From Gallionellales bacterium GWA2_54_124 (GTDB taxonomy: Bacteria > Pseudomonadota > Gammaproteobacteria > Burkholderiales > Gallionellaceae), in contig MGWO01000007.1 in NCBI GenBank assembly GCA_001801025.1, forward strand, positions 1,217,576 to 1,249,575: a DNA stretch of 32,000 nucleotides, in the 5' to 3' direction. How positions within the stretch are numbered: the first letter of the stretch is position 1; every line of letters starts with the position of its first letter. A program made the position numbers and the translations under genes. This document shows positions 541 through 32,000 of the stretch, piece by piece. The notes beneath the pieces are model-generated. The model worked only from the letters and a program-made list of their open reading frames with translations. It was not told the DNA's origin and ran no database searches.

Positions 541-542
541 CA

Positions 543-578
543 ACAACTGATAATTGACGACTCTCAATTATCAGTTGT
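543..578. terminator. Bidirectional hairpin between convergent mlaF-like gene and pgi
   Basis: Perfect 14-bp inverted repeat CAACTGATAATTGA / TCAATTATCAGTTG (544-557 / 564-577) with a 6-nt loop, lying between two convergent stop codons. Confidence 0.6.
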
Positions 579-592
579 CAATTTTAATCTAT

Positions 593-2233: not shown

Positions 2234-2278
2234 GGTAATGATCTTTGTTCAAAGTTCAACTAACGGACATATTAAACA

Positions 2279-2300
2279 GCCCTCCCTGATAGGGGAGGGC
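2279..2300 (-). terminator. Hairpin immediately downstream of glgB stop
   Basis: GCCCTCCC / GGGAGGGC stem with a 6-nt loop, 9 nt after the glgB stop. The T-tail on the minus strand is weak (TGTTTAAT). Confidence 0.4.
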
Positions 2301-2308
2301 CTTGCAAG

Positions 2309-4465: not shown

Positions 4466-4556
4466 TATATTTCCTCATTAGTTCTTGTGTCGTGCGGTAA
4501 TTGTAAACGATAATGCCTTGGTCAATTAAGGTAAATGTGACCATGAGGAGGTAAAG

Positions 4557-5882: not shown

Positions 5883-5928
5883 GGCTCAACTCAATTAACC
5901 CCGCTGCCAAACAGCGGGGCTTTCAGCT

Positions 5929-7632: not shown

Positions 7633-7674
7633 ATGTCAATCAGCCTTTAGACCGTTTTAGAGAATGAATCGCTT

Positions 7675-19672: not shown

Positions 19673-19726
19673 CAGGCAACGTGATTGAACTTGATGGGCA
19701 ATTGTTAAAATTAAAGCGGATTCGCA

Positions 19727-19822
19727 TTAATACCAACGTATGCAATCACCGGCGGTTTGGGGTCTGGAAAATCGCTCGTTTCTATCGGCCGCATTCAAGA
19801 TTATTTGAAACATGGTAGTCGT
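19727..19822 (+). pseudogene. zot / pI assembly ATPase, N-terminal fragment (Walker A only)
   Basis: In-frame translation reads LIPTYAITGGLGSGKSLVSIGRIQDYLKHGSR, the P-loop N-terminus typical of Zot-like proteins. There is no ATG, and homology stops abruptly at the terminator hairpin at 19824. Confidence 0.65.
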
Positions 19823-19850
19823 AAGGGGGCTTGCGCCCCCTCTTTTTTTA
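19823..19850. terminator. Conserved bidirectional terminator hairpin, copy A
   Basis: AGGGGGC-ttgc-GCCCCCT followed by a T-run. The same hairpin recurs at 21117-21140 and 28419-28438. Confidence 0.7.
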
Positions 19851-19866
19851 CGGTTATGAGAATTGT

Positions 19867-20112
19867 TTAGAAAAATGATTTCAGTACTAAAGCCACAACG
19901 CCGCCCAGTACTAAGCCGGTCATCCATTTTAATATCTGAAGTTCTGCTTTCATGGGTGCTAGTTCTAATTGAATGTCTTTTTTTGTGACTAGCTCCTGAT
20001 CGTTGGACGCATCGCGGTAGGCGTTCGCAATTGCTTCGGCCTGGTTGTTTTGCATACCGCTGGCTTCAGGTGTTTTAACGAATTTCAGGGTGTCGAATGT
20101 AACGGTGCTCAT
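19867..20112 (-). CDS. DUF1640/CCDC90-like small membrane-anchored coiled-coil protein (cargo copy A)
   Basis: 81 aa: MSTVTFDTLKFVK...QAEAIANAY...LVTKKDIQ...C-terminal TM helix. The FDT-x-KFV / AEAIA pattern is recalled from the DUF1640 family. Paralog at 28441-28686. Confidence 0.6.
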   Translation of the reverse strand: MSTVTFDTLKFVKTPEASGMQNNQAEAIANAYRDASNDQELVTKKDIQLELAPMKAELQILKWMTGLVLGGVVALVLKSFF

Positions 20113-20136
20113 GATGTTCTTTTCGGTTGATGGTTA

Positions 20137-20165
20137 AGACTAAATCATTTTCACTACATTAGCAA
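20137..20165 (-). promoter_or_regulatory. Candidate sigma70 promoter of cargo slot (copy A)
   Basis: On the minus strand: TTGCTA (20165-20160), 17 nt, TAGTCT (20142-20137). The block is retained in all three copies. In copy C, homology begins about 5 nt upstream of the -35. Confidence 0.45.
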
Positions 20166-20330
20166 TTTAGTGACCACTCGATGCACTCTCCTGGACGTAA
20201 AAAAACTTTCCGCCTCGATGCTCAACCGTCCCGCTTTTTGCCCGAGAAGAAAAAAGGGTTTCGGGCGGTGTTGATCTGCTGGATCTGACCCGAAGACCGT
20301 AGGGTTCGGCAGTCGTCCCGCCGAAGGTTA
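20138..20330. repeat. 193-bp repeat R, copy A (cargo leader plus 165-bp structured distal part)
   Basis: Aligned by eye to 21691-21883, it shows 3 mismatches in 193 nt. The first roughly 30 nt also match 28711-28743. Confidence 0.9.
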
Positions 20331-20332
20331 AC

Positions 20333-20950
20333 GGTTTGATTGTTCTTGATGATTTTTAATTCGCGTGAATGGGCTGACAAGGGCAGGGCGGCTGTTATCG
20401 CATGGCTTCGCCATTCTCGTAAACTCGGTTGGGATGTCATTTACATTATGCAAGACGTGAATTCTATTGATAAGCAGATTCGCGCCGGATTGATTGAGCA
20501 TGAGGGCGTTTGTAAGCGTTCTGACCGTATGTCATTGCCTTTTGTTGGTGGTATTTTACGTGCTCTCGGTCTTGGTTTTTTGAGTCGTCCGCCTCGTGTT
20601 CATGTCTGCACTGTTAAATATGGCCTTTCCCAGCATGCTCTGTCGTTGATCGTTGGATGTATCGTGGTGTCTTGCTTCAGGATGGTTACGACACGAATCA
20701 GATTTTTAGTGAATTTGATGTTAACGGTGACTCTGTCGGCATTCATTCTATCTTAAGTCCTTGGCATACGCGGGGGCGTTATTTGCCTCCGCCGTTTTTG
20801 ACTCTTTTTCTGCTCTACCTTCGTGGTACTCCTTGGCGAAAGCCGGTTTCAACCTTCAAGCATCCGTTGGTTTCTCGCATCATGAAATTACCGCCGGAAC
20901 GGCGGATAGAGTTTTTCAATCGTTTTGATTCTTGCGGTGCATTTTCATGA
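20333..20950 (+). pseudogene. zot / pI assembly protein body, at least two frameshifts
   Basis: Walker B GLIVLDD (frame 2) hits a stop and the protein resumes in another frame as FNSREWADKGR...HSRKLGWDVIYIMQDVNSIDKQIR. A second shift near 20650 leads into RWMYRGVLLQDGYDTNQIF...LSPWHTRGRY. Confidence 0.7.
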
Positions 20951-21066
20951 GGTTGGTTATTTTGTGTTGCTTGGCTGTCTCGGCTTGTTCGTTTCCTTCG
21001 CATCGTGATGTTTATCTTGATTGGTACAAGTGTATGCAAAACAATTATGTGAAAGATTGTGATTGA
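20947..21066 (+). CDS. Small lipoprotein overlapping zot stop (ATGA), copy 0
   Basis: 39 aa: MRLVILCCLAVSAC|SFPSHRDVYLDWYKCMQNNYVKDCD. Lipobox-like signal and a shared W-x2-C-x8-DC pattern with the ORF at 28177-28308, which sits in the same position. Too short for the ORF track. Confidence 0.55.
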   Translation: MRLVILCCLAVSACSFPSHRDVYLDWYKCMQNNYVKDCD

Positions 21067-21110
21067 GATTTCCCGATCACAGCTGTATGCCGCGTCTTTA
21101 CTGGGTTTGA

Positions 21111-21146
21111 AAAAAGAAAAGGGGGCTTTCGCCCCCTTTTTTTCTC
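21111..21146. terminator. Conserved bidirectional terminator hairpin, copy B
   Basis: AAAAGGGGGC-tttc-GCCCCCTTTT, with an A-run before and a T-run after. Confidence 0.75.
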
Positions 21147-21163
21147 TGGCCGTTGGCTAATTG

Positions 21164-21391
21164 TTAAGCTGTTGCATACCGCCTTACATCTAACTCAACG
21201 CCATGTTGTGCGGCCTGATTTGCTTGCTCTAACAATGATCGGGTGATTTTTGCATCGTGGTAAGCCTCTCCGCAATTTTCACAAACTTCTGCGGGAACGT
21301 TTTTAAACATCATTGTCGAGTTGCCGCGTTCTAGCGTAATGCTTGCAACACCGTGTTGTGTATTTCCGTGTTTGCAAATTGGACATTTCAT
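21164..21391 (-). CDS. MqsA/YgiT-type zinc-ribbon antitoxin-like protein
   Basis: 75 aa: MKCPICKHG...NVPAEVCENCGEAYHD (CxxC...CxxC, YgiT-type zinc-finger pattern). It starts 2 nt after the stop of the upstream DUF4258 gene. Confidence 0.7.
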   Translation of the reverse strand: MKCPICKHGNTQHGVASITLERGNSTMMFKNVPAEVCENCGEAYHDAKITRSLLEQANQAAQHGVELDVRRYATA

Positions 21392-21393
21392 TT

Positions 21394-21666
21394 TTATCTC
21401 CTTGTTTTCAGGTCTTCGAGCCAGATTTCTGGGTTTGGCTCGTATACCGTAATTATGATTCTGATGTCTTCGTCGACAGAGTCGGCGTATACAACGTGAA
21501 CAGCCTTGTTTCCTGCATGTCCTAATAACAGTGCGCTAGGATAGGGCGTGTCATTCGGGTATGCCTCAATAATTGTTCCGGTTTCAATTGCCTGTTCTAC
21601 GTCAATTTCTGATATGCAACGCTCATGCATTCGCTTGATGGCGTGTTGTCTGTAAATTATCCGCAT
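21394..21666 (-). CDS. DUF4258-family toxin-like protein
   Basis: MRIIYRQHAIKRMHERCISEIDVEQAIETGTIIEAYPNDTPYPSALLLG...HVVYA...IIITVYEPNPEIW matches my recollection of the DUF4258 pattern. Start set at the ATG at 21666, which follows the conserved leader/RBS. Confidence 0.7.
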   Translation of the reverse strand: MRIIYRQHAIKRMHERCISEIDVEQAIETGTIIEAYPNDTPYPSALLLGHAGNKAVHVVYADSVDEDIRIIITVYEPNPEIWLEDLKTRR

Positions 21667-21690
21667 GCTTTTCCTTCGTTTGATTGTCAA

Positions 21691-21883
21691 GACTAAATGA
21701 TTTTCACTACATTAGCAATTTAGTGACCACTCGATGCACTCTCCTGGACGTAAAAAAACTTTCCGCCTCGATGCTCAACCGTCCCGCTTTTTGCCCGAGA
21801 GGAAAAAAGGGTTTCTGGCGGTGTTGATCTGCTGGATCTGACCCGAAGACCGTAGGGTTCGGCAGTCGTCCCGCCGAAGGTTA
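21691..21883. repeat. 193-bp repeat R, copy B
   Basis: See 20138-20330. The two flanks diverge immediately after ...CCGCCGAAGGTTA. Confidence 0.9.
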
Positions 21884-21969
21884 TCCAGTCAGCGCGCAGC
21901 CTGTTTTTTAATCACGGAGCTTTTCGCCGTTGATTTTTATTTATCGCGCTGGGGTGTTATTGTGACTTT

Positions 21970-22226
21970 ATGATATTTCATCCATACCCAGTTTGGTCTG
22001 TTGTAATCCGTAATCATTTTTGGACTCTGCGTTATATTCGCGGATTCAATGAGTCGCGGAGACGTCAGCAATATTGGCTAATCGAGAAAGAAAAAAACGC
22101 CTGTATGAAACAGGCGTTGATAGTGAAGTGGTGCGGTTGTTATGCCGAGATATGGCAATTCCTCGGAATCCTCATGCTGAAAAGCGCTTTTGGGATGAAT
22201 TTCATAAGCCCGCGAATTCTCCATAA
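21970..22226 (+). pseudogene. attP-adjacent 85-aa basic protein homolog, frameshifted in an A7 tract
   Basis: The first 42 codons parallel 29460-29717 with many synonymous differences. After A7 (22091-22097, versus A8 in the other copy) homology continues in the +1 frame (KRLYETGVDSEVVRLLCR...KRFWDEFHKPANSP, stop at 22224-22226). Confidence 0.7.
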
Positions 22227-22608
22227 TTTTCTTCTTATATTTGACATAATATACATTTGAATTCAACGAGTTACGATCTAACCCTATCAATTCACTTGCA
22301 TTTGCTGGGGCAGGTGTCATGTTTAAAATGACAGCACCTAATATCACCGACGCGGCATGACTCACAAAAGGGAGCAATACCGCTCTTCTTTCCTGATTTT
22401 TTTCTGTTATTAATTCGCTTGCTGAAATTACTTCCATTTCATTTATTGTTAATAGTTGAGCAATTTGACAACAAACTGCGATTGGTAAACCTGCGCGTCC
22501 GTTTTTTGCATTTGTAATTTGTTGAGAAGATACGCCAAGATAATCGGCTAATTCCTTTTGGCTCCCGACTTCCATTATTGCTAAGACAATGTAATTTTTC
22601 ATATTCAT
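22078..22608 (-). CDS. HTH (Cro/CI-type) phage repressor-like protein; ORF reads through the dif-like site
   Basis: MNMKNYIVLAIMEVGSQKELADYLGVSSQQITNAKNGRAGLP is an HTH. A hydrophobic segment follows (ASVILGAVILNM). AGGAG RBS before the ATG at 22608. There is no stop before the attachment site, and the 28-mer itself encodes NSNVYYVKY. Confidence 0.65.
   Translation of the reverse strand: MNMKNYIVLAIMEVGSQKELADYLGVSSQQITNAKNGRAGLPIAVCCQIAQLLTINEMEVISASELITEKNQERRAVLLPFVSHAASVILGAVILNMTPAPANASELIGLDRNSLNSNVYYVKYKKKIMENSRAYEIHPKSAFQHEDSEELPYLGITTAPLHYQRLFHTGVFFFLD
22096..22118 (-). terminator. Minus-strand intrinsic terminator embedded in the 85-aa ORF (copy 0)
   Basis: AACGCCTG / CAGGCGTT stem. 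On the minus strand it is followed by the T7 run. It lies downstream of the repressor gene, across the dif-like site. Confidence 0.55.
22239..22266 (-). other. dif-like XerC/D site, hybrid (XerD arm and spacer intact, XerC arm degenerate)
   Basis: Plus strand: ATTTGACATAA TATACA TTTGAATTCAA. The reverse complement of the first 17 nt is TGTATA-TTATGTCAAAT, against E. coli dif TGTATA-TTATGTTAAAT. The last 11 nt do not resemble a XerC arm. Confidence 0.7.
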
Positions 22609-22620
22609 TATTTTCTCCTG

Positions 22621-22688
22621 TTGACATACAAATTTATTTGATTTATTGTGTCGATCAAATAAGTTTGTATGCAATTAAATTTGTATGC
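22621..22688 (+). promoter_or_regulatory. Rightward promoter candidate plus three operator-like 9-mers
   Basis: TTGACA (22621-22626), 17 nt, TATTGT (22644-22649). TTTGTATGC occurs at 22664-22672 and 22680-22688, and its near-complement ACATACAAA at 22624-22632. Confidence 0.5.
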
Positions 22689-22737
22689 GCTTAGATTGCA
22701 CCAAACAGCGCAACAAGTCAATCAACAGGGGGCAGGA

Positions 22738-22968
22738 ATGCAAAACGGACAACCAGCACAGCAAAGGCTTATAGGCGTTTCTGGCATTATTCCCGTGCAT
22801 CTTGAAAACCGTCTACACAATTTAGCAGCTTCAAACCGCCGCGATTTCGACTTAGATTACTCGGACACGTTCGCTCAGGTGATCGCGCTAGGTGTCGATG
22901 CATTACAGTCCAGACGTTCGTCGGCCTATGTCCGGTCAACTGAAATTATGAAAAAGGTTTGCGGCTAA
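22738..22968 (+). CDS. Hypothetical small protein upstream of rep
   Basis: 76 aa from the ATG at 22738 (GGGGGCAGGA RBS). TAATG overlap with the in-frame rep ATG at 22968. No recognisable motif. Confidence 0.4.
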   Translation: MQNGQPAQQRLIGVSGIIPVHLENRLHNLAASNRRDFDLDYSDTFAQVIALGVDALQSRRSSAYVRSTEIMKKVCG

Positions 22969-24092
22969 TGACTCCTGCAAACCAACAGGCGCTTGAGGCT
23001 TTACAGGCTTACGACCTCGCGCATCCTCCCGTTGAGTCTGTCTCAACACAACCAGAATTTTTCAAGATAGTGCTGACTGATGATTCCAAATGTCCGGTCA
23101 AGCTAATACCGAATCGCATGTCATCTGGGGATGGTGTTGCATTCCTCGATTGGGTCAATTTCACTATCCACGAATCAACCATGATTGACTCTGCTTTAGA
23201 GGGGCAGTGTTTTTCTGACGAAGATTTCATGGTTTCGTTTTCTCGCATCCTCTTTAAGATTTTCGGCTTTGGTCTTACTTCTCGCATGAGTACCGGATCT
23301 GATTTCTACCAAAAAAGATGGGTGCTAGGGGAGGGCTTCGGCTTTGTCTGTTTCGGCGGCAATAACTCAACCGTCTTGACCAAGCTTTCTGGCACTGGCT
23401 GTGCGGCTGCTCTGCACGGTTGGGAATCTCGGTTAAGAAATTTCCTAGAGTATCAAGCTGTCCAGCCTCGTATCACGCGCCTCGATCTGGCGCACGATGT
23501 CTATGATGGTCAATCCTACAATGTGGATAGAGCTTCCAGTGATTACGATGCTGGCTTATTTTCTTCCGGCGGTCGCTCTCCGAATATCGAACTGCGCGGC
23601 AACTGGCGCACGCCAAACGGCAAAGGCCGCACGGTCTATGTCGGCGCAAGATCAAACGGTAAATATCTCCGCGTCTATGAGAAGGGCCGTCAGCTGGGCG
23701 ATGCTACATCTGAGTGGGTTCGTATCGAGGTTGAAATTAAATCCATTGATCGCGTTATCCCTTTTGATGCTCTGGTTAAGGCTGGCGAATATCTCGCGGC
23801 AACTTATCCGGCGCTCAATTTTCTGTCCGTTAAGCAATGTCGCATTGAAACAATTTCCCGTACTGCTAAGGCTGGCTATGCGCACACGGTTGCATGGTTA
23901 AAACATCAGTGTGGATCATCTTTGGCTCTGGTCGCTGAGATAGAGGGCGGGGCGGATCAGGCTCTTGATCTTATAAAACGCCCGATAGTTTTAAAGGGTG
24001 CTTTGCTCGTACCGTCTTGTGATACGCATCTAGTTCCTATTCATGATCGTGAGCGATTGGAGCATCCCGATATGGTTTTACCTGAATTCTGA
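22959..24092 (+). CDS. Rolling-circle replication initiation protein (Rep_trans / RstA-like)
   Basis: ITRLDLAHDV...GRTVYVGARSNGKYLRVYEKG...EWVRIEVEIK is the pattern of replication-initiation-factor (RstA-type) proteins of filamentous phages. The start may be the TTG at 22959 or the ATG at 22968. Confidence 0.75.
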   Translation: MRLMTPANQQALEALQAYDLAHPPVESVSTQPEFFKIVLTDDSKCPVKLIPNRMSSGDGVAFLDWVNFTIHESTMIDSALEGQCFSDEDFMVSFSRILFKIFGFGLTSRMSTGSDFYQKRWVLGEGFGFVCFGGNNSTVLTKLSGTGCAAALHGWESRLRNFLEYQAVQPRITRLDLAHDVYDGQSYNVDRASSDYDAGLFSSGGRSPNIELRGNWRTPNGKGRTVYVGARSNGKYLRVYEKGRQLGDATSEWVRIEVEIKSIDRVIPFDALVKAGEYLAATYPALNFLSVKQCRIETISRTAKAGYAHTVAWLKHQCGSSLALVAEIEGGADQALDLIKRPIVLKGALLVPSCDTHLVPIHDRERLEHPDMVLPEF

Positions 24093-24163
24093 TTTTTGAT
24101 TACCTCCTGTTTCCGGCGCTCAGGGTCAAAGGTATAGCCGTAGTAATTTATAAGGAAATTGTC

Positions 24164-24457
24164 ATGAAATTTAAAGCCTCTGTTGTTGTTACTGGTCTGA
24201 AGCGTTCTAAAGGCGATATGGAAGGTACGCCTTATGACTTTACGTCTGTTTTTATTCAGGTTGATTTAGACGAATCTACAAAAAACGCTCGCGGTCAGGC
24301 TGTTGAACCGTACAAGCTTGGCACGTCAGACAATTACGCGACTTTCGACGGTTTCCAGTTGCCGTTTAATGCGATGGCTGAGTTTGAAATTACAACTACG
24401 GGCAAAGTCGCAAAGCAAAAATTGCTTTCCCTTGTTCCTGTTCCTGCTCGTCCGTAA
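24164..24457 (+). CDS. Candidate ssDNA-binding protein (gpV analogue)
   Basis: 97 aa, immediately after rep, with an AAGGAA RBS. The assignment rests on size and position only. Confidence 0.35.
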   Translation: MKFKASVVVTGLKRSKGDMEGTPYDFTSVFIQVDLDESTKNARGQAVEPYKLGTSDNYATFDGFQLPFNAMAEFEITTTGKVAKQKLLSLVPVPARP

Positions 24458-24681
24458 TGCAATCCCCTGCGCTCCGTCAAGTTTGGGTTATCCAGTGCAA
24501 AAGCACGGGGGCTTTCTTGACGCCTGAACAAGGCTTTGCTGCAAGCCTAAAGAGGGCAGGGCGTTTGTTCAATCCTGATGAAGTCAGAGAGACGGCTTTT
24601 GATGCGCTCGATGACGATTATGAGGTTCATACCTTCTACGAGGTTGTGCAAATGCTTGAGGGTTTTCGTCATTATGAGTAG
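24457..24681 (+). CDS. Hypothetical protein
   Basis: 74 aa with a TAATG overlap with the upstream ORF. No motif recognised. Confidence 0.4.
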   Translation: MQSPALRQVWVIQCKSTGAFLTPEQGFAASLKRAGRLFNPDEVRETAFDALDDDYEVHTFYEVVQMLEGFRHYE

Positions 24682-24692
24682 CTTTTTCAATG

Positions 24693-24718
24693 CCCCCCCC
24701 CCCACATAAGATGGGGGG
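24693..24718. repeat. C11 homopolymer / G6 hairpin in intergenic region
   Basis: C x11 at 24693-24703, a 9-nt spacer, then G x6 at 24713-24718. Confidence 0.8.
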
Positions 24719-24778
24719 AAAGTATCTTTGTAAGTATGTATGTAGGGTATTTTCCCAAAATTTTATAGGGTTGGATTC

Positions 24779-24967
24779 TTGATGTTTAGTGAACATTCCA
24801 TCACTGCCGACTGGTTCATTCAGCAAGTCATATTAGCCCTGATTCATAGTGCTGTTTATGGCATGGCTTACCACTTTTTCAAAGGGCTGTCCCTCGGTGG
24901 TGCGGTGTTGGCTTGCTTGTGTCTGCTGGTCGTAGCGTGGCTCGCATTTAAACTTTTTAGGCGTTAG
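24779..24967 (+). CDS. Small two-TM membrane protein
   Basis: 62 aa with two hydrophobic helices. Its position is typical of minor virion or morphogenesis proteins. Confidence 0.4.
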   Translation: MMFSEHSITADWFIQQVILALIHSAVYGMAYHFFKGLSLGGAVLACLCLLVVAWLAFKLFRR

Positions 24968-24976
24968 GTCAATTAA

Positions 24977-25288
24977 ATGGCTTTTACTTGCGTCCCAGTC
25001 GTTGCTCAGTGGGGTACTGTCTCCTACATCAACACGAATCAAGCCGCATGCGCTGCTAATCAGTGGGCTGTGTTCACCTCTGCTGATTTGACTGCCTATA
25101 ACGCATCTTTAACCGCTGGCACGGCTTCAACCCCTGCCGTTACACAAACAACGTCATTCTTTCCCTCGATGACGATTGCGGAGGCTCTGCCCATATTTGC
25201 AGCTATCTCGCTGCTGTGGGGGCTGGCTTTCACCTTGAGGGCTATTGGTAATTTTCTAAAACCTAAATCTGGAGATTCAAATGATTAA
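24977..25288 (+). CDS. Small C-terminally anchored protein (possible minor coat protein)
   Basis: 103 aa with a C-terminal TM (LPIFAAISLLWGLAFTL). Its first 120 nt recur with one synonymous change at 31881-32000. Confidence 0.5.
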   Translation: MAFTCVPVVAQWGTVSYINTNQAACAANQWAVFTSADLTAYNASLTAGTASTPAVTQTTSFFPSMTIAEALPIFAAISLLWGLAFTLRAIGNFLKPKSGDSND

Positions 25289-25499
25289 AAAACTGAAAAA
25301 CGCGCTGATTCGTAAACAATTCAAGATCGCTGCTGGCGCTGGTGCGCTTCTGGCTGCTGGCTCGTCACAAGCTGCCATCGATGTAACTGGCGTTACAGCT
25401 GCCCTCACTGATGGTTTGACCGCTGTAGGTACGATCGGCGGTGCTGTTCTGCTCATTTGGGGGACAAAGAAGGTTTACGCCCTCATTTCCGGTCGTTAA
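25281..25499 (+). CDS. Major coat protein (gpVIII-like)
   Basis: 72 aa. Signal peptide ending SSQA|A, then a mature roughly 40-aa peptide with an acidic N-terminus, a hydrophobic core and a basic C-terminus (WGTKKVYALISGR). GGAG RBS and a strong terminator after it. Confidence 0.75.
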   Translation: MIKKLKNALIRKQFKIAAGAGALLAAGSSQAAIDVTGVTAALTDGLTAVGTIGGAVLLIWGTKKVYALISGR

Positions 25500-25518
25500 T
25501 CTTCAGTAAACAAATAAT

Positions 25519-25555
25519 TCCCCTTGTTGCGCGTAGCCTCAAGGGGATTTTTTTT
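25519..25555 (+). terminator. Rho-independent terminator after coat gene
   Basis: TCCCCTTG / CAAGGGGA stem, 13-nt loop, T8 run. Confidence 0.8.
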
Positions 25556-25608
25556 AAGGGGTATAAATTGGAAGGTTATCTTTTGTTACTCGGGCTTATC
25601 GGTGCTTT

Positions 25609-26886
25609 ATGGATTCTCTTCGCTCCCTAGTTTTACTTCTCGCCGTGTTTTTTTCCGGCCATGCTTTTGCTGGTGTTGATTACTCTCAACCCCAGCAGTC
25701 ATTCTCTGCACAAAGCTTGTCAGGTTCTTTTTCTAGCGCTGGGCTTATGCTTTCCGCTTTTATGTCTCATTTTCCGCAATATACGTCCTGTACTTTTGAT
25801 GGCGTCAACTCGCATCCAATTCTCTGCGATGGCACTGGCGGCGGCGGACCTTATACTCAGCAACCTATGGGTGTCGGTTATGCTTCTGCCCCTCTTTGCC
25901 CTTTATCATCTACGTTTAATTCTGTTTCTGGTCAGTGCGAAAAGCCAAATTCATGTACGGCTGGCCAGACTATTTTTGCTGGTCGTTGGTCGTCTATGCC
26001 CTCAAACGGCTGTAATTCAGGGTGTAATGCAGTTTGGACAGGCTCAAACGTTGCGGGAAGTTCCTCTAATTTTTCCGGTTCTGCTGTCCTCGATGGGTCG
26101 TCATGTTCTGGTGGATCGGCTGTGCCTCCTCCTGATTTGCAGGATATAACGGCTTGTCCATCTGGCCCGACTGGCCCGACTTCCTGCGCTGCTGGCGAAT
26201 CACTCGTTATTCAGGGTTGTACAGCATCTTGCTCCCCTAATACTCAGTCTGGTACTTCCGGATCAACGACTGGCGGCACTACTGGCGGCACTACTGGCGG
26301 TACAACTGGTGGCACAACTGGTGGCACAACTGGTGGTACAACTGGCGGTACAACAGGCGGTACAACTACCACAAACAACACGACAAACAATGTTGATATG
26401 TCGCCCGTCACGGCTGCGGTCGATGCTGCAACGGCTGCAATCAAGGCAGGAACGCTTGTCCAGTACTGCATCGATCATCCTGATGCGAATATCTGTCAGA
26501 CCAATGTCATTAATGCCGCTTGCGGTTCTTTTAACTGCTCTGGTGACGCTATTCAGTGCGCGATCGCAAAAGATCAATTTGACCTTCATTGCAAGCTTGC
26601 TAATGAGCAAAACGCCAATCTTGATATAGGCAAAAGGATGATTGATGGAACGGACACTAGCGTCAGAAATCCCGCTGATGTCGCTAACCGCTCCACTTTC
26701 TCAATTGGTTCTTTGGATATGAGTTCCCCCATTGCGGCCAAGTGCCCGGACGATGTTGTTTTTACTGTCATGGGTAAGTCGTCAACTTTGCCGTTGTCTC
26801 TCTGGTGTCCTTATCTCGCTCTTGTCGGCAATGTTTTCATGGCCTTGTCTCTTGTCGCTGCTGCTAAAATTATCGGAGGTGTTTAA
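25609..26886 (+). CDS. Adsorption / minor coat protein (gpIII-like)
   Basis: 425 aa. Signal peptide, Cys-rich N-terminal domains, (TTGG)x8 flexible linker, C-terminal membrane anchor. Confidence 0.7.
   Translation: MDSLRSLVLLLAVFFSGHAFAGVDYSQPQQSFSAQSLSGSFSSAGLMLSAFMSHFPQYTSCTFDGVNSHPILCDGTGGGGPYTQQPMGVGYASAPLCPLSSTFNSVSGQCEKPNSCTAGQTIFAGRWSSMPSNGCNSGCNAVWTGSNVAGSSSNFSGSAVLDGSSCSGGSAVPPPDLQDITACPSGPTGPTSCAAGESLVIQGCTASCSPNTQSGTSGSTTGGTTGGTTGGTTGGTTGGTTGGTTGGTTGGTTTTNNTTNNVDMSPVTAAVDAATAAIKAGTLVQYCIDHPDANICQTNVINAACGSFNCSGDAIQCAIAKDQFDLHCKLANEQNANLDIGKRMIDGTDTSVRNPADVANRSTFSIGSLDMSSPIAAKCPDDVVFTVMGKSSTLPLSLWCPYLALVGNVFMALSLVAAAKIIGGV
26266..26361 (+). repeat. 12-bp tandem repeat x8 encoding (TTGG)n linker
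   Basis: ACN ACN GGN GGN is repeated 8 times with synonymous third-position variation. Confidence 0.9.
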
Positions 26887-27191
26887 TGCCCGCAATTGGT
26901 GTTGTTATTGGCTGGCTTGTTGGTGCAATTGGCCTTACGCTTGCAAATTGGGTCGGTCGTGTTTTGGTTGCTCTCGGTATTTCTTACATCACGTTCAGCG
27001 GTGTTGATCTACTGTTTTCGAGCCTAAAAACTGAAATTTGGTCACTGCTCGGCGGTGCTGGTCAGCTTTCCGGTGTCATCGGTCTTTCCCGCATTGGCGA
27101 ATCGGTCAACATCGTTTTTTCCGCCTTGATCGCTAAAATGTCCCTTTCTGGCATGACTGGCGGTAAGCTCACTAAACAGGTCATCAAGTAA
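26886..27191 (+). CDS. gpVI-like minor coat protein (DUF2523-like)
   Basis: 101 aa and hydrophobic. TAATG overlaps on both sides. Located immediately upstream of zot, as in many inoviruses. Confidence 0.6.
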   Translation: MPAIGVVIGWLVGAIGLTLANWVGRVLVALGISYITFSGVDLLFSSLKTEIWSLLGGAGQLSGVIGLSRIGESVNIVFSALIAKMSLSGMTGGKLTKQVIK

Positions 27192-28180
27192 TGGCTATCG
27201 ACCTAACGCCGCTTACTGTTGTCACAGGTTTGCCCGGATCGGGCAAGACGCTTTTTACTCTTACTGGTGTTGATGAGTACTCCAAGCGTGAAGGCTTCAA
27301 GGTCTACTATCACGGCATTCCTCAATTGACGCTTGATTGGGAAATGCTCGAAGAGCCTAAGCAGTGGCACAACCTGCCGAACAAGTCGATTATTGTCATC
27401 GACGAATCACAAAGTACGTTCCCGCCCCGATCATCGTCGGCCGCCATGCCTGAACATGTCGCAGCTGCCAATACCCTGCGCCACAAGTCGCACATGCTGG
27501 TTTTGATTACGCAGCATCCGATGCTGATCGACGGGTCGATCCGCAAGCTTTGCACAAAGCATTATCACGTTGAGCGTTTTTACGGCTTTCAAAAATCAAC
27601 GATTCATGAGTTTTTGAAGATCCGCGACAACTGCGACAAATCCACTAAAGGCTCTATCTCTACGCATTTTGTTTATCCAAAAGAGGTTTTTAACTGGTAC
27701 AAAAGTGCGGATATGCACACGATCAAGAGGCGCATCCCCGCGCGTCTTATTATGATTATTATTCTGCCTTTGATCGCTGTTGCGCTGGTTTATTTATTCA
27801 TCAAAACTGTGGGAGGTTTGACTACTGGAGATAAGATTAAAGGGGGGGCTGCTTCACCCACCACCGGAGTTCAAGCGGTTTCAGGTGTCATTGCCGTTCC
27901 TGTTTGGACTGACACATTAAAGCCTCGGTTGTCCGGTTTTCCGCACACAGCCCCGCGTTATGATGAAGTGACTAAGCCGACTGTTGCGCCTTATCCCGCC
28001 GCGTGTGTTTCGTCTGAATCTCGTTGTGTCTGTCACACGCAACAGGGAACTAAAATGCTTGTCGATGATGCTCTTTGTCGGAGCATTGCCAGCAACGGAT
28101 TTTTTAATGATTTTCTTGAGAAAAAAACGGATTCATCGCCTGTTTCTCAAGTCCCTCGGCCTTCGTTATCGTCGCTATGA
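27191..28180 (+). CDS. Zot-like / gpI assembly ATPase
   Basis: Walker A VVTGLPGSGKT, Walker B IIVIDESQ, a mid-protein TM segment (LIMIIILPLIAVALVYLF) and a periplasmic C-terminal domain. Confidence 0.85.
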   Translation: MAIDLTPLTVVTGLPGSGKTLFTLTGVDEYSKREGFKVYYHGIPQLTLDWEMLEEPKQWHNLPNKSIIVIDESQSTFPPRSSSAAMPEHVAAANTLRHKSHMLVLITQHPMLIDGSIRKLCTKHYHVERFYGFQKSTIHEFLKIRDNCDKSTKGSISTHFVYPKEVFNWYKSADMHTIKRRIPARLIMIIILPLIAVALVYLFIKTVGGLTTGDKIKGGAASPTTGVQAVSGVIAVPVWTDTLKPRLSGFPHTAPRYDEVTKPTVAPYPAACVSSESRCVCHTQQGTKMLVDDALCRSIASNGFFNDFLEKKTDSSPVSQVPRPSLSSL

Positions 28181-28308
28181 TTAAAAAACTTTTCTGGATT
28201 CTGATGGTCGTTTTGATGTCTGGCTGCATGTCTACGCCTGAATCCCGCCATGCTGAAACTGCTGCATGGTGGTCTTGTACTAATCTCCATCGTGTTGGAG
28301 ATTGCTGA
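28177..28308 (+). CDS. Small lipoprotein overlapping zot stop (ATGA)
   Basis: 43 aa: MIKKLFWILMVVLMSGC|MSTPESRHAETAAWWSCTNLHRVGDC. Lipobox LMSGC. Homologous in position and Cys pattern to 20947-21066. Confidence 0.55.
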   Translation: MIKKLFWILMVVLMSGCMSTPESRHAETAAWWSCTNLHRVGDC

Positions 28309-28410
28309 ATATCGAGGCGAAGCGCACGCGGCTAACGAAGTGCCGCGAAGCTCGCCCGATATTTATTTTCTTCGATCGCAGCTGTATGCCGCGTATTTAC
28401 TGGGTTTTAT

Positions 28411-28442
28411 AAAAAGGGAAGGGGGCTTGCGCCCCCTTTTTT
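28411..28442. terminator. Conserved bidirectional terminator hairpin, copy C
   Basis: AAGGGGGC-ttgc-GCCCCCTT flanked by A- and T-runs. Confidence 0.75.
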
Positions 28443-28686
28443 AATGCATTTTCATCAGTATTCCGATTAAAACGGAGAATTGAGCTAGTGCTAGGCCGAT
28501 AATCCATTTAAGCATATCGAATTTCATATCGGTCAGCTGAATTTGTAGATCTTGTTTTGTTACGAGCTCTCTGTCGTCTGATGCGCTTTGATAGGCATTT
28601 GCAATTCCTTTTGCTCTCTCTTCGTCAAAACCGCTTTTTTTAAGTATTTCAACGAATTTCAGGGTGTCGAATGTCACTGTGCTCAT
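28441..28686 (-). CDS. DUF1640/CCDC90-like small membrane-anchored protein (cargo copy C)
   Basis: 81 aa: MSTVTFDTLKFVEILKKSGFDEERAKGIANAY...LVTKQDLQ...TM helix. The N-terminal 12 aa are identical to copy A and the rest has diverged. Confidence 0.6.
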   Translation of the reverse strand: MSTVTFDTLKFVEILKKSGFDEERAKGIANAYQSASDDRELVTKQDLQIQLTDMKFDMLKWIIGLALAQFSVLIGILMKMH

Positions 28687-28743
28687 GATGTTCCTTTCGG
28701 TTGATGGTTAAGACTAAATCATTTTCACTGCATTAGCAATTTA
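28687..28743. repeat. Cargo leader/promoter, copy C (truncated R)
   Basis: Matches 20113-20169 with 2 mismatches by eye. Homology ends right after the -35 TTGCTA, at the stop codon of the next ORF. Confidence 0.85.
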
Positions 28744-29145
28744 CGCGAATAACTGCCTGTTTTTTTTGGGTGTCCAGTCAGCCCATTTTAGAATATCTGC
28801 CACAATTACCAGCTCGAGCACGTCTTGAATGGGTGCAACTTGCTTGGCCGCTGGCATTTTGAAATTCTTTACCCATTTTTTCAGCCATTCGGCTGAATTT
28901 TCCTTAATCTCGGCCATGATTTGCAAGGCCACGCCAACAGCATCAACGAAGTCCAGCCACGTTTGACGGGCTTTAAATTCCGCGTTTTTCATGTATCTGC
29001 AATTGTTGATTTTCATGGTTTTGGTATTCCCAGCATCTTCCAGAATCTTGAGCCTGCTTTTGATTTCCTCGCGGTGCAGGTTTCTGCCGCTTGCTTCTTT
29101 GCTTCTCCCGTCATCCCGTCGCCTTGCGATATCAGCTCGTAGCAA
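28741..29145 (-). CDS. Orphan hypothetical protein occupying the position of the distal part of repeat R
   Basis: 134-aa ORF with a TTG start; internal ATGs would give 91 or 83 aa. No recognisable motif and no clear RBS. Confidence 0.35.
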   Translation of the reverse strand: MLRADIARRRDDGRSKEASGRNLHREEIKSRLKILEDAGNTKTMKINNCRYMKNAEFKARQTWLDFVDAVGVALQIMAEIKENSAEWLKKWVKNFKMPAAKQVAPIQDVLELVIVADILKWADWTPKKNRQLFA

Positions 29146-29459
29146 TTTTAATAATCAACGATTTTGGCAAGATCGCAGTTTTTGCGGCTGTATCGCAAAA
29201 AACGATTGCCGCAAAACCCGAAGGGCGCACAGTCTCACCGTGCGTTGTTGATTATTGAAATTGTCGGAGGGAAGATTCGCGTTTTAGGCGGCGGGGTGAT
29301 GGGAAAGCATTTGCGGAGTGCTGCACGGTCGAGTCAAAAAATAGAGCACCCGAAGGGTGACGACCTAACAGACAGTTTCACCCGTCTGTTAGCCTTTTAA
29401 TGCAGTTGGCATTGCGCCGTTGATTTTGATTTATTGCGTAGCGGTGGTATTCTGAAAAA

Positions 29460-29717
29460 ATGATATTCCATCAATACCCCAACTGGTCAGGCACGATTTT
29501 GAGTCATTACTGGTATCTGCGTTACTTCCGCTCGTTTCAGGAGGCTAGACGGCGCAAACAATACCGGCTGATCGCGAAGGAAAAAAAACGCCTGCATGAA
29601 ACAGGCGTTGATAGTGAGTTGGTGCGGTTGCTATGCCGTCATGCGGCAAATCCTCGGAATCAACATGCTGCAAAACGCTTTTGGGATGCTTTGCACAAGC
29701 CTGCGGAATCTTCTTAA
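29460..29717 (+). CDS. Conserved attP-adjacent 85-aa basic protein
   Basis: Compared with 21970-22226, many differences are synonymous or conservative (F, P, S, I, Y, R, L, K codons), which indicates purifying selection. Arg/Lys-rich. No family recognised. Confidence 0.6.
   Translation: MIFHQYPNWSGTILSHYWYLRYFRSFQEARRRKQYRLIAKEKKRLHETGVDSELVRLLCRHAANPRNQHAAKRFWDALHKPAESS
29587..29609 (-). terminator. Minus-strand intrinsic terminator embedded in the 85-aa ORF
   Basis: AACGCCTG / CAGGCGTT stem followed on the minus strand by T8 (29581-29588). Confidence 0.55.
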
Positions 29718-29728
29718 TTTACTAATCA

Positions 29729-29756
29729 ATTTGACATAATATACATTATGCGTATT
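29729..29756 (-). other. dif-like XerC/D recombination site, near consensus
   Basis: The reverse complement reads AATACGCATAA TGTATA TTATGTCAAAT, against E. coli dif GGTGCGCATAA TGTATA TTATGTTAAAT. The spacer is identical, the XerD arm matches 10/11, and the XerC arm shares CGCATAA. Confidence 0.8.
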
Positions 29757-30120
29757 TAAAACGCCTAAAAACGCCTCCCTGCGTTTTTACGAGGTCTTGC
29801 CCTGTCCATAAGGTAGCGATGCAAAGCAAGGCCATTATGAGGCCTCTCAGGGGCTGCTTTACACGCAAGCGAAAACCCGCCCAGAACTTTTGCTCTGTTT
29901 CGTTCTTCGCGCTCAATTCCTCAAACTCCGCTATCAACGCCAATGGATCCAACCCAAGACATTCCGCGATCTTCATCAGCGCATAGGCATTCGGTACACG
30001 TTTGCATTTCATGTATTCGCTGATTCTTTGTGTCGGAATCTTCAGTTCTTTTGCTAGTGCGTAATCGCTGGAAATCTTTAGCTTGATTTTGCAGTCTTTC
30101 AAAAGTTCGCTGGTTCTCAT
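29746..30120 (-). CDS. HTH phage repressor-like protein with hydrophobic C-terminal segment
   Basis: MRTSELLKDCKIKLKISSDYALAKELKIPTQRISEYMKCKRVP is an HTH. GGAGAG RBS before the ATG at 30120. The TAA stop is the first 3 nt of the XerC arm. The C-terminus contains LRGLIMALLCIATLW. Confidence 0.65.
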   Translation of the reverse strand: MRTSELLKDCKIKLKISSDYALAKELKIPTQRISEYMKCKRVPNAYALMKIAECLGLDPLALIAEFEELSAKNETEQKFWAGFRLRVKQPLRGLIMALLCIATLWTGQDLVKTQGGVFRRFKYA

Positions 30121-30255
30121 TTTTCTCTCCGGTAGTCCGACTGTTTCAGTTGGCAGCTGTATTTTATCCCGTTTTTGGGGATTGACAATCTCCCACTTAT
30201 CGGGATACATTCGGCTATCCCATATTTCGGGACAATTAACCGACAAAGGAACATC
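30121..30255. promoter_or_regulatory. Divergent control region with repeated heptamers
   Basis: TTGACA at 30182-30187 with TACATT 18 nt downstream. TATCCCG (30165-30171), CGGGATA (30201-30207), TATCCCA (30216-30222) and CGGGACA (30228-30234) occur in alternating orientation. Confidence 0.45.
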
Positions 30256-30546
30256 ATGACCATCCGCATCGAAGTCAAAAGCGCAAAAGTAGTCGAAGTT
30301 AACGGCACCTCAAAAGCCGGAAAACCCTTTCATATCGTCAAACAAGCCGCATGGGCTTACACCTACGATTCGTTCGGTGAACTCAATCCCTTCCCAGAAC
30401 GCATCGAAATGAGTATCGCAGACGGCGCACAACCCTATCCGGTCGGAAATTACACCCTCGACCCCCGCTCATTCTTCGTCGGCGATTTCAACAGCCTGTC
30501 AGTCGGTCGCCTCATTCTCGCGCCAGTGACAGTTCGTCCGGCTTAA
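30256..30546 (+). CDS. ssDNA-binding protein (gpV-like)
   Basis: 96 aa: MTIRIEVKSAKVVEVNG...PFPERIEM...YPVGNYTLDPRSFFVGDFNSLSVGRLILAP resembles helix-destabilising proteins of Pf/Xanthomonas-type inoviruses. AAAGGA RBS. Confidence 0.6.
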   Translation: MTIRIEVKSAKVVEVNGTSKAGKPFHIVKQAAWAYTYDSFGELNPFPERIEMSIADGAQPYPVGNYTLDPRSFFVGDFNSLSVGRLILAPVTVRPA

Positions 30547-30727
30547 TCATGTTCCTCCCAAAAATCTCCCCCGATTTTTCCTCGTCCTCACCGACGGGGT
30601 TTTTTGCTGCGTCCTCTGGTTCGAAAAAACCCGCCTTTGTCGGTGTCGAGGTCGCAGCAAAAAACCTGAGAATTGACCCTACAAAAAAGTTGGTCATTTC
30701 TTGTTCTGGGGTAACACGTAGCCAATC

Positions 30728-30790
30728 ATTCCCAATATGGGAATTTTATCTCTACTTTTACCCCCTGCCATTCAGTCTCAAATTGAGACT
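30728..30790. promoter_or_regulatory. Two palindromes upstream of rep (operator or origin candidates)
   Basis: ATTCCCA-ata-TGGGAAT at 30728-30744 and a perfect 17-bp palindrome AGTCTCAAATTGAGACT at 30774-30790. Confidence 0.4.
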
Positions 30791-30816
30791 TTTCTAAAAC
30801 CATATCGGGGGATATT

Positions 30817-31881
30817 TTGAACGATGCACACTATGACAATGACGGGTTGTTTGTTGACTGGCTCACCCTGTGGCAAGTCCATCCCGCACACGGCGCTATC
30901 AATTCAGGATGTGTTCGAACCCTTGACGGAAGTTCAAAGGTCGTTTTTGAGAGAACTCGCGCCGCGCGCATTCAGGGAAGTTATGCAAGTTCATGCTCTG
31001 TTAAGAGTGACGGTTCTTGTGTCGTTTTCTCGGGCAATTTCGGACGGTTTAACCGTTACGACAATCTTTTCAACTATGACCCTGCGAAAACCCTCGAACG
31101 CGCCAACGTGGTTGCAGAGTTCGCAGGATTCCCCCCCTTCCGCCTTCACGATCTCCGAGACAACACAGCTACCGCCCCAGATTTCAGCGCCTTGGTTGGA
31201 CCATCTCGCGCAGCTTTCAGGGAAGCCGAAGCACGAGCATCTTTTGTCAACTTATCCCGTGTTGACCTCACTAAAAACTATTCATGCGGAAGCCTTGGCG
31301 CTGCCCGTGCATTGATCAAGGCGATACAGGGAAAATCTGTTTCACGCGTAAAAAAGGGGATCGGTGGCGATGCTTCTGTCTGGTGGTCTAACACCCGTTA
31401 CATGCTCAAGGTCTACATCAAGGCTTTGGAAATGGAGGCGCATGGCATTACCAGCGGCAGGGCTTACGAATACGCCCGTGACAATGGGATTGTGCGGCTT
31501 GAACTGGAGTTAAAACGCCGTGAGCTTCACGATCTGGGCTGGAACGATTACGCATTATTTTTGAAAGGATGGGAAATGGGTACAGTTCATAAATTATTTT
31601 CTGACTACGCAAAAATCATGGAAACGGTAGCTATCTCAGATGATGCTGAATTCATCGACTCACTGCCTCAACGGCTTCGCGTCACTGCGGCTGCTTTCTT
31701 AGCTGGTCGTGATGTTAAAAGCATCATGTCCAATGGTGGTTTTTATCGTCACCGTAAAGCTCTCCTCGAATATGGCATCGACATCGCTGACGAGCGTCCA
31801 GCGCGCATCAACGTCCAGATTCAACAGGTCACTGTAACGCCCGTTACCGCTCCAGACTGGTATTGGGGGAATGCAGCGTAA
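30817..31881 (+). CDS. Replication initiation protein (gpII/X-like), different from the Rep at 22959
   Basis: 354 aa, TTG start with a GGGGGA RBS. VDWLTL, SGNFGRFNRYDNLFNY, LSRVDLTKN and YIKALEME recall gene-II/X family proteins. By eye the only similarity to the other Rep is the R[LV]DL motif. Confidence 0.55.
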   Translation: MNDAHYDNDGLFVDWLTLWQVHPAHGAINSGCVRTLDGSSKVVFERTRAARIQGSYASSCSVKSDGSCVVFSGNFGRFNRYDNLFNYDPAKTLERANVVAEFAGFPPFRLHDLRDNTATAPDFSALVGPSRAAFREAEARASFVNLSRVDLTKNYSCGSLGAARALIKAIQGKSVSRVKKGIGGDASVWWSNTRYMLKVYIKALEMEAHGITSGRAYEYARDNGIVRLELELKRRELHDLGWNDYALFLKGWEMGTVHKLFSDYAKIMETVAISDDAEFIDSLPQRLRVTAAAFLAGRDVKSIMSNGGFYRHRKALLEYGIDIADERPARINVQIQQVTVTPVTAPDWYWGNAA

Positions 31882-32000
31882 TGGCTTTTACTTGCGTCCC
31901 AGTTGTTGCTCAGTGGGGTACTGTCTCCTACATCAACACGAATCAAGCCGCATGCGCTGCTAATCAGTGGGCTGTGTTCACCTCTGCTGATTTGACTGCC
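31881..32000 (+). CDS. Start of structural module (homolog of 24977-25288), 3' end outside window
   Basis: 120 nt match 24977-25096 except for one synonymous GTC/GTT change. TAATG overlap with rep. Confidence 0.6.
   Translation, partial: MAFTCVPVVAQWGTVSYINTNQAACAANQWAVFTSADLTA

Follow-up and report, generated by a model that had tools for sequence, protein, structure and literature searches.

An array of integrase-less filamentous prophages that probably flanks a working dif site on both sides in a Gallionellaceae bacterium

We analysed a 32,000-nucleotide stretch of DNA (the window) from the metagenome-assembled genome Gallionellales bacterium GWA2_54_124, of Rifle groundwater, in which an array of filamentous-phage genes begins just past the host gene cusA. 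The array measures ~16 kb overall and the window holds its left three-quarters (19.7–32.0 kb). The stretch past the window end was read from the metagenome contigs L010 and L015, from which the end of the array is projected to ~35.77 kb in window numbering, ~3.7 kb past the window and beside host corA. All 16 of the 16 recovered metagenome contigs are collinear with the window and carry the array in its integrated state. The proteins encoded by the open reading frames (ORFs), larger shadow ORFs included, were scanned with Pfam, PHROGs and NCBIfam. The ORF listing and Pfam reveal three sets of phage genes, all on the + strand, and the combination of a Zot/pI ATPase, a small coat protein, a rolling-circle replication protein (Rep) and a single-stranded DNA (ssDNA)-binding protein in units of 6–8 kb places the elements among the inoviruses (Tubulavirales). 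An earlier note on this DNA had described three same-orientation sets of Zot, coat, Rep and repressor genes; the orientation stands, as do sets 2 and 3, whereas set 1 consists of Zot fragments without Rep, coat or repressor. The note had also found no recombinase ORF, and the library scans agree, detecting no recombinase or transposase domain in any real or larger shadow ORF of the window. The note had further allowed that an integrase might lie just beyond the window; there is none in the remainder of the array in L010 and L015, which contain only the rest of prophage 3, a half-site junction and host genes.

Two 28-mers divide the array, at 22239–22266 (site 1) and 29729–29756 (site 2), both on the + strand and precisely where the earlier note had placed them. 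Both had been taken to match the XerD arm and TGTATA spacer of dif, the chromosome dimer-resolution site. This describes site 1 exactly (ATTTGACATAA-TATACA-TTTGAATTCAA): it matches dif perfectly in the XerD arm and the overlap, and the sequence in the XerC position is unrelated (3/11 by eye), leaving it without a XerC arm. Site 2 (ATTTGACATAA-TATACA-TTATGCGTATT) goes further than the claim. Comparison of its reverse complement, AATACGCATAA-TGTATA-TTATGTCAAAT, with the dif of Escherichia coli, GGTGCGCATAA-TGTATA-TTATGTTAAAT, identifies it as a complete dif. Chance matches to the 28-mer with ≤3 mismatches did not occur in 100 shuffles. Site 1 forms the left attachment site (attL) of prophage 2, while site 2 is at once the right attachment site (attR) of prophage 2 and the attL of prophage 3. 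Prophage 2 is thus bounded by sites 1 and 2, and prophage 3 by site 2 and a right junction at L010 2469–2497.

Prophage 2 is intact and occupies 22256–29745, the 7,490 bp of which equal its predicted excised circle; its gene set, that of a complete inovirus, spans 22.08–29.72 kb. At the left end lies a divergent helix-turn-helix (HTH) repressor gene (22078–22608, − strand; 176 aa; Pfam YdaS_toxin/HTH_3). Because this ORF reads through site 1 into the neighbouring remnant DNA, the tail of the repressor depends on context, and in the predicted free circle the protein would have 155 aa and a different tail. An overlap between repressor gene and attL is also seen in the independent inovirus of contig L100, described below. 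On the + strand there follow a 99-aa ORF and a rolling-circle Rep (22669–24092; Rep_trans at 22959–24092, Pfam PF02486, E 2e-29), then a group (24164–25288) formed by an RstB-like ssDNA-binding protein (24164–24457; phrog_4994 E 5e-25, with a weak RstB match) and small ORFs of 74, 62 and 103 aa (phrog_4644 for the last). The structural and assembly module (25281–28308, + strand) encodes Coat B, a g3p-like protein (25609–26886; phrog_4352 E 7e-41), a DUF2523/g6p protein, Zot (27191–28180) and a 43-aa lipoprotein, the assignments resting on Pfam Phage_Coat_B, DUF2523 and Zot in addition to the PHROGs match. The g3p-like protein carries a GGTT-repeat linker. Within its gene a 12-nt tandem repeat (26239–26370; GGTT-type, Gly/Thr-coding) breaks assemblies, and its copy number differs between samples, giving 425 aa here versus 441 or 461 aa in metagenome contigs.

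The terminal gene of prophage 2, and of the related elements that we term type A, encodes an orphan four-helix protein of 85 aa (29460–29717, + strand) that ends 12 bp before dif. Its family numbers at least 277 clusters at 50% identity. The protein itself has no Pfam match at E up to 10, and none of 35 close homologues carries a Pfam domain. An AlphaFold2 model (predicted local distance difference test score 85.6) found no Foldseek match in BFVD or the PDB, the best E being above 1. DUF3653, the domain of XafT-like proteins, was found in 0/42 diverse family members, and alignment of the 85-aa protein to a DUF3653 protein of the syntenic relative L094 gave an hhalign probability of 0.5%. A search of IMG/VR with the back-translated protein returned nothing. 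A distant family member, in L106, has no recognisable dif-like site downstream. Any role for the protein is a guess from its position.

Prophage 3 (~6.0 kb), which represents type B, starts at 29.75 kb, to the right of dif. Its first gene encodes an HTH repressor (29746–30120, − strand), whose length of 124 aa was set by homologue comparison and whose TAA stop falls within the XerC arm of site 2. The protein has a generic Cro/CI fold with a weak, below-cutoff match to NCBIfam RstR. The replication module (30256–31881, + strand) comprises a Phage_DNA_bind ssDNA-binding protein (30256–30546) and a Phage_CRI/G2P Rep (30817–31881). The structural module begins at 31880 on the + strand and is cut by the window end at 32000; this part is 99% identical to 24976–25096 in prophage 2 (repeat family D5), and the module continues in L015 and L010 with coat, g3p, g6p and Zot genes and a copy of an intergenic repeat. 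The right junction of prophage 3 reads TGTTTTCATAA-CTACGCA-TTATGCGTATT, with an overlap of TACGCA versus TATACA in dif. Beyond it lie the host flank TCAGAATAG, an 89-aa ORF (p89), corA and other host genes on the − strand. In all, ~3.4 kb of structural module are 99% identical between prophages 2 and 3 and lie in direct orientation astride dif (24976–28407 versus 31880–32000 plus L015 1455–4994); the replication, repressor and attachment-site modules of the two prophages are unrelated.

Several observations place site 2 at the chromosome terminus, in line with the earlier note's proposal of an array at, or formerly at, the dimer-resolution site. A 25-nt core of site 2 is present in exactly 1 copy in each of the 58 genomes that contain it, which are species representatives, mostly Gallionellaceae, dominated by Gallionella, Sideroxydans, Ferrigenium and Sideroxyarcus. 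Many of these carry a TCAG(G/A) flank next to the XerC arm, and the identical flank is found at the right end of the array. The GC skew, which the note had named as a check, changes sign across the array, from +0.064 over the 19.7 kb to its left to −0.071 over the 9 kb to its right, and host genes turn from the + strand on the left to the − strand on the right. The octamer GGGNAGGG is five-fold enriched, with 10 copies in the window (2292–30395) where 2.0 would be expected. Site 2 separates the copies by strand, with all nine on the + strand to its left and the only one on the − strand (30388) to its right; in the right host flank there are 1 on the + strand and 3 on the −. Copies within the prophages left of dif are likewise directed toward dif. 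By analogy with the FtsK-orienting sequences (KOPS) of E. coli, we infer that the octamer works as a KOPS in the family.

Relatives, to which the note had also pointed for comparison, have dif in the same interval. The syntenic contigs L094 and L095 have the order cusA, ~95 bp, the last ~40 bp of a homologue of the gene for the 85-aa protein (the small ORF), dif, a tandem pair of type B prophages, an element with a DUF3653 (XafT-like) protein, p89, corA and a FAD protein. In L094 dif lies ~150 bp past cusA with corA on the opposite side, in the same orientation as in the window. This synteny indicates that dif natively lies just past cusA, oriented as it is here. On the complete chromosome of Ca. 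Nitrotoga arctica (L092), the pair of small ORF and dif is found at 1.795 of 3.30 Mb (~54%), at a flip in gene orientation. The DUF3653 element of L094 (1853–3537) has three genes and is bounded by a TLC-like site, GTCAGCCATTT-TATACA-TTATGCGTATT; both of its ends are followed by an identical "host flank" of at least 70 bp (TCAGAATAGGCCGACTCGG...).

Both kinds of phage attachment site (attP) recur in relatives, including in free form. For type A, the circular virome genome MW202693.1 has a small ORF, then ATTGAACATAA-TATACA-GTGTTTTAACA, then a convergent HTH gene. L100 holds an independent, unrelated type A inovirus (514–8786), with a Phage_CRI Rep, its own secretin and a gene for a retropepsin-like aspartyl protease; its attL is ATTTTACATAA-TATACA-TTGTTCATTCA, and its attR is a full dif 10 bp past the small ORF. 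A DUF3653 element follows on the other side of that dif. At site 1, at the L100 attL and at the MW202693.1 attP alike, a 17-bp sequence of XerD arm plus overlap lies between the terminal genes of the element. In every case examined, L018, L023, L053, L075, L092, L097, L103 and L105 among them, the small-ORF homologue is in the + orientation and on the side of the XerD arm of dif. For type B, the integrated element of L087 has ATTTGACATAA-TATACA-TTATGCGAATT on its left and GTTGCCGTAAT-CGGACA-TTATGCGAATA on its right, and the permuted contig L088 carries the attP GTTGCCGTAAT-CGGACA-TTATGCGAATT. The comparison demonstrates that a type B attP shares with dif only the XerC arm and the 2–3 adjoining bases of the overlap. 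Type B repressor homologues stand directly right of dif in L033 and L067.

We conclude that the locus is probably an array of Xer-exploiting integrative mobile elements (IMEXs), namely integrase-less filamentous prophages at the Gallionellaceae dif, with elements of two attP types flanking a working dif that lies inside the array. Judging from the sequences, integration and excision would be catalysed by host XerC and XerD. In the proposed scheme, each binding arm would keep its outer flank and never swap partners with it. The type A attP consists of a XerD arm and the full 6-bp overlap without a XerC arm. Its integration would leave the host XerD arm joined to the phage sequence in the XerC position on the left, and the phage XerD arm joined to the host XerC arm, a complete dif, on the right, such that type A elements would land on the XerD-arm side with dif rebuilt at their right end. 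It follows that later arrivals would push older copies outward, and the gradient of decay from fragment 1a through the larger 1b to intact prophage 2 fits an order with the oldest outermost. The type B attP, predicted to be 29 bp and VGJ-like, would pair a perfect XerC arm with a weak XerD arm, the 7-bp spacer between them agreeing with dif at the XerC-proximal bases only. Its integration would give a complete dif on the left and a weak XerD arm joined to the host XerC arm on the right, with the element on the XerC-arm side. Taken together, the rule on arms and flanks and the two sets of products would yield the observed layout.

The limited homology between the type B overlap and dif would favour a XerC-first exchange resolved by replication, as is established for VGJ and CTX, while the type A overlap, being fully identical to dif, would permit both exchanges, and we infer a full two-step reaction that may be aided by the 85-aa protein. 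The sole complete dif, inside the array, would remain the dimer-resolution site of the host. Two-sided integration implies that both arms of this dif would be phage-supplied DNA; the original host XerC arm would now stand at the far right junction, and the original host XerD arm would have disappeared when a deletion brought the oldest fragment up against the 3′ flank of cusA. A bolder suggestion, which we put forward only tentatively and think rather unlikely as a whole, is that type A represents a further mode of Xer exploitation in filamentous phages, with an attP of XerD arm plus overlap, dif rebuilt on the XerC side, arrays that grow on both sides, and a reaction possibly dependent on the 85-aa protein, which could be a Xer accessory or activation factor of a new kind that makes up for the missing XerC arm.

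The left end of the array bears the marks of such a deletion. The junction with cusA (stop at 19672) spans 19673–19729, and the dif scan found no dif-like site between cusA and the first Zot fragment, in keeping with the earlier note's view that a deletion had fused a truncated zot to the cus operon. Weak DNA similarity to an intact relative begins at ~19717, and the equivalent spacer in L094 is unrelated in sequence. Fragments of zot were delimited by tblastn with the intact 293-aa Zot of L087. Remnant 1a retains Zot residues 1–29 with the Walker A motif (19730–19816, + strand; 72% identity; start codon now ATA), and remnant 1b a Zot pseudogene of residues 79–288 (20329–20952, + strand; two frameshifts; 57% and 50% identity in two frames; Pfam Zot E 8e-10). 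In place of residues 30–78 stand 513 bp with a terminator, the gene for a DUF1640-like protein and a 209-bp intergenic repeat in truncated form. From the sequence, we take set 1 (19730–22238) to be what is left of two older copies, 1a and 1b, both truncated. The leftmost junction, made of the host XerD arm and a type A left end, would have been lost by deletion together with most of copy 1a. Since dif natively abuts cusA, only a small deletion of host DNA would have been needed. L094 too has a type A stump beside cusA, and the two stumps suggest recurrent erosion from the outside with the dif-proximal end kept. An 11-mer resembling a XerC arm (19854–19864, 2 mismatches) was dismissed as a chance match because there are many such half-site matches across the window. 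Inversion as the cause of the left junction, prompted by L035 and L048 (below), was not adopted because the closer relative L094 is oriented like the window.

Both remnants retain further phage features. A GC-rich hairpin followed by a T run, resembling a terminator, lies at 19823–19847 (+ strand; repeat family D12), with related copies at 21119–21143 and 28419–28443. In remnant 1a it is followed by cargo, an 81-aa DUF1640/CCDC90-like protein (19867–20112, − strand; Pfam PF07798 E 4e-6, below the curated cutoff). A paralogue with the same C-terminal hydrophobic helix (28441–28686) occupies the same cargo slot in prophage 2, the cargo of which (28441–29145, − strand) also includes a 134-aa ORF (28741–29145) with no match in Pfam, PHROGs or NCBIfam. 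Remnant 1b has, after zot, a 44-aa lipoprotein-like ORF (20932–21066, + strand; from the ORF list) with a counterpart in prophage 2 (28177–28308) and a downstream repeat, D9, common to both. Between the post-zot terminator and the intergenic repeat of remnant 1b sits a toxin–antitoxin pair (21164–21690, − strand) that may stabilise the remnant, formed by a YgiT/MqsA-type zinc-finger antitoxin (21164–21391; MqsA_antitoxin E 4e-7, TIGR03831 E 3e-14) and a DUF4258 toxin (21394–21690; E 1e-24). The 209-bp non-coding repeat is presumably the phage intergenic region. It is present as D2a (20122–20330, + strand; cut short at 20330, its point of contact with the Zot fragment of remnant 1b) and full-length as D2b (21675–21883, + strand; without an Rfam family); the two are 97% identical to each other and ~91% identical to the copy at the end of prophage 3 (L010 2150–2352). 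A role for the repeat as packaging signal or origin found no support, its predicted ssDNA fold being no better than those of shuffles (z −0.61), and an Rfam search of 19.6–32 kb gave sub-threshold noise only. Remnant 1b ends with a copy of the attP-adjacent small gene (21970–22226, + strand) that is frameshifted near codon 43. Its N-terminal half is 63% identical to the 85-aa protein and its C-terminal half (frame 22074–22226) 77%. The frameshift lies at a poly-A run (22089–22100), and the DNA is still 84% identical to the intact copy.

The layout might instead reflect a classical one-sided array as in Vibrio cholerae, with the working dif at the far right end and the internal 28-mers as hybrid, non-functional junctions. 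In V. cholerae the side on which a new dif arises is the same for every incoming IMEX (preprint 10.64898/2026.06.12.731946), and the right junction here does retain a perfect XerC arm and the conserved host flank. Its XerD arm is degenerate, however, since 4/11 positions mismatch with a 7-bp spacer and 7/11 with one of 6 bp, whereas site 2 is the sole perfect dif and the polarity of GGGNAGGG turns there and not at the right end. In relatives, moreover, no small-ORF element is placed on the XerC-arm side and no type B element on the XerD-arm side, and we consider the one-sided arrangement very unlikely. A different challenge comes from recombination. Prophages 2 and 3 share their 3.4-kb module at 99% with otherwise unrelated modules, 1a and 1b share a 97% identical repeat, and the deletion joints have no dif-like sites, all as expected if homologous recombination between related prophages, with duplication and deletion, had done most of the shaping after one or two integrations, in place of four independent Xer events. 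Against this stand the differing Rep families, repressors and attP types, and the junctions at the two ends of every intact element, which are the pair that Xer integration predicts, a logic that recurs in unrelated contigs. Recombination has probably reshaped the array yet leaves its founding unexplained, and as the main cause we hold it unlikely.

It could also be argued that the dif-like sites are phage-borne look-alikes, with the true dif elsewhere and entry by Rep-mediated or homologous recombination. Some findings that speak for this also count against our preferred interpretation of a Xer-built array at dif, and we set them out with the other points on that side. The uniqueness of dif was checked in the 58 genomes and, for the source, in the window and adjoining contigs only, so a second dif could lie elsewhere. 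The genes xerC and xerD were not seen in the window, although no search was aimed at them. Circular forms were not recovered from IMG/VR or JGI metagenome contigs: the circle junction of prophage 2 (TTACTAATCA-ATTTGACATAATATACA-TTTGAATTCAACGAG) and the core of site 1 are absent from the JGI contigs, the exact site 1 core is absent from IMG/VR, and the circle junction of prophage 3 (GGCGGTCTGTTTTCATAACTACGCA-TTATGCGTATT-TAAAACGCC) was not found in IMG/VR. In the distant relatives L035 and L048, dif is reversed relative to the FAD-protein/RNase T and cusA flanks, which suggests inversions around the terminus in the family; L048 has an empty dif, with a glucan phosphorylase gene between dif and cusA. 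The 85-aa protein lacks the profile or fold similarity that would make it a known, XafT- or XafV-like Xer activator, and we know of no experimentally established mechanism for an attP without a XerC arm. Set against the look-alike explanation are the switch of skew and GGGNAGGG polarity at this very locus, the single-copy dif core in each of the 58 genomes, the L094 dif in the same cusA–corA interval, and the pair of small ORF and dif ~54% around the complete chromosome of Ca. Nitrotoga arctica. We regard that explanation as extremely improbable.

IMEX arrays are well known as a kind, and this one is a two-sided variant. Like the arrays of V. cholerae chromosome I (TLCphi, VGJphi and CTXphi/RS1 at difI), it consists of head-to-tail, integrase-less filamentous elements with hybrid dif-like sites between them, one complete dif always being regenerated and older members lying farther from it. 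In V. cholerae the current dif has all members to one side of it, whereas here it stands between the members with a XerD-arm attP and the one with a XerC-arm attP. The host also differs, being a Gallionellaceae betaproteobacterium, and no folded ssDNA attP of the CTX type was seen. Prophage 3 resembles VGJphi, which has a 29-bp attP and relies on XerC catalysis (PMC4246890): its predicted double-stranded attP of ~29 bp combines a perfect XerC arm with a weaker XerD arm and a 7-bp spacer whose agreement with dif is confined to the bases beside the XerC arm, a logic that also holds in L087/L088 and L094; a divergent HTH gene abuts the site, and tandem copies are joined by attP in L094. VGJphi-type elements encode the activator XafV (ORF136-like) next to attP; here the domain and fold searches detected no XafV- or XafT-like protein, and the only gene adjoining the site encodes the HTH protein, which resembles a generic Cro/CI or RstR-type repressor. 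As a XafV candidate this HTH protein found no support, its fold matches being generic Cro/CI only. Rep and structural proteins are only distantly related to those of the vibriophages.

TLCphi-type sites have a XerC arm and overlap identical to dif, a degenerate XerD arm and a XafT/DUF3653 protein. Prophage 3 does not belong here, its overlap differing from dif and DUF3653 being absent from the window. Type A is rather a mirror image of TLCphi, flanked by an attP-like site and dif, with one arm and the whole overlap identical to dif and the other arm unrecognisable, but it keeps the XerD arm and not the XerC arm. A genuine DUF3653 element with TATACA and a XerC arm is present in the relatives L094 and L100. 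Left-armed attPs of 17 bp were described in 2025 for PM2-like phages and Vibrio IMEXs (PMC12715192). In these, as here, a XerD arm plus 6 bp (ATTTAACATAATATAAA there, ATTTGACATAATATACA here) lies between two terminal genes, one of them a repressor. In Vibrio, the activator genes xafT and xafV adjoin attP, and the terminal pair of left-armed IMEXs is rstR-like plus xafT-like; in type A the repressor is present and its partner is the unrelated orphan four-helix protein, in elements that are inoviruses and live in freshwater betaproteobacteria. The nearest named phages are the Ralstonia inoviruses PE226 and p12J, with a Zot 41–47% identical, a low identity, and a similar layout without a secretin gene. 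In the searchable literature we found neither inoviruses of Gallionellaceae, nor a XerD-arm attP paired with the orphan 85-aa protein, nor an array that flanks a working dif on both sides.

Our understanding of IMEX arrays comes almost wholly from V. cholerae, where the rule that dif re-forms on the same side serves to read the history of integration. Two attP designs on opposite sides of dif, in Gallionellaceae and related Nitrosomonadales, mean that the order of such an array would be read outward from an internal dif. The locus also illustrates why prophages of this kind break metagenome assemblies and are merged by prophage callers. As a natural substrate pair, ATTTGACATAATATACATTTGAATTCAA and dif pose the question of XerCD recombination without a XerC arm, with a candidate accessory protein at hand. 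Recombination between the two shared 3.4-kb modules would remove dif from the chromosome and set free a hybrid phage circle with a full dif. In this host, both arms of an essential dimer-resolution site would have come to be supplied by phages.

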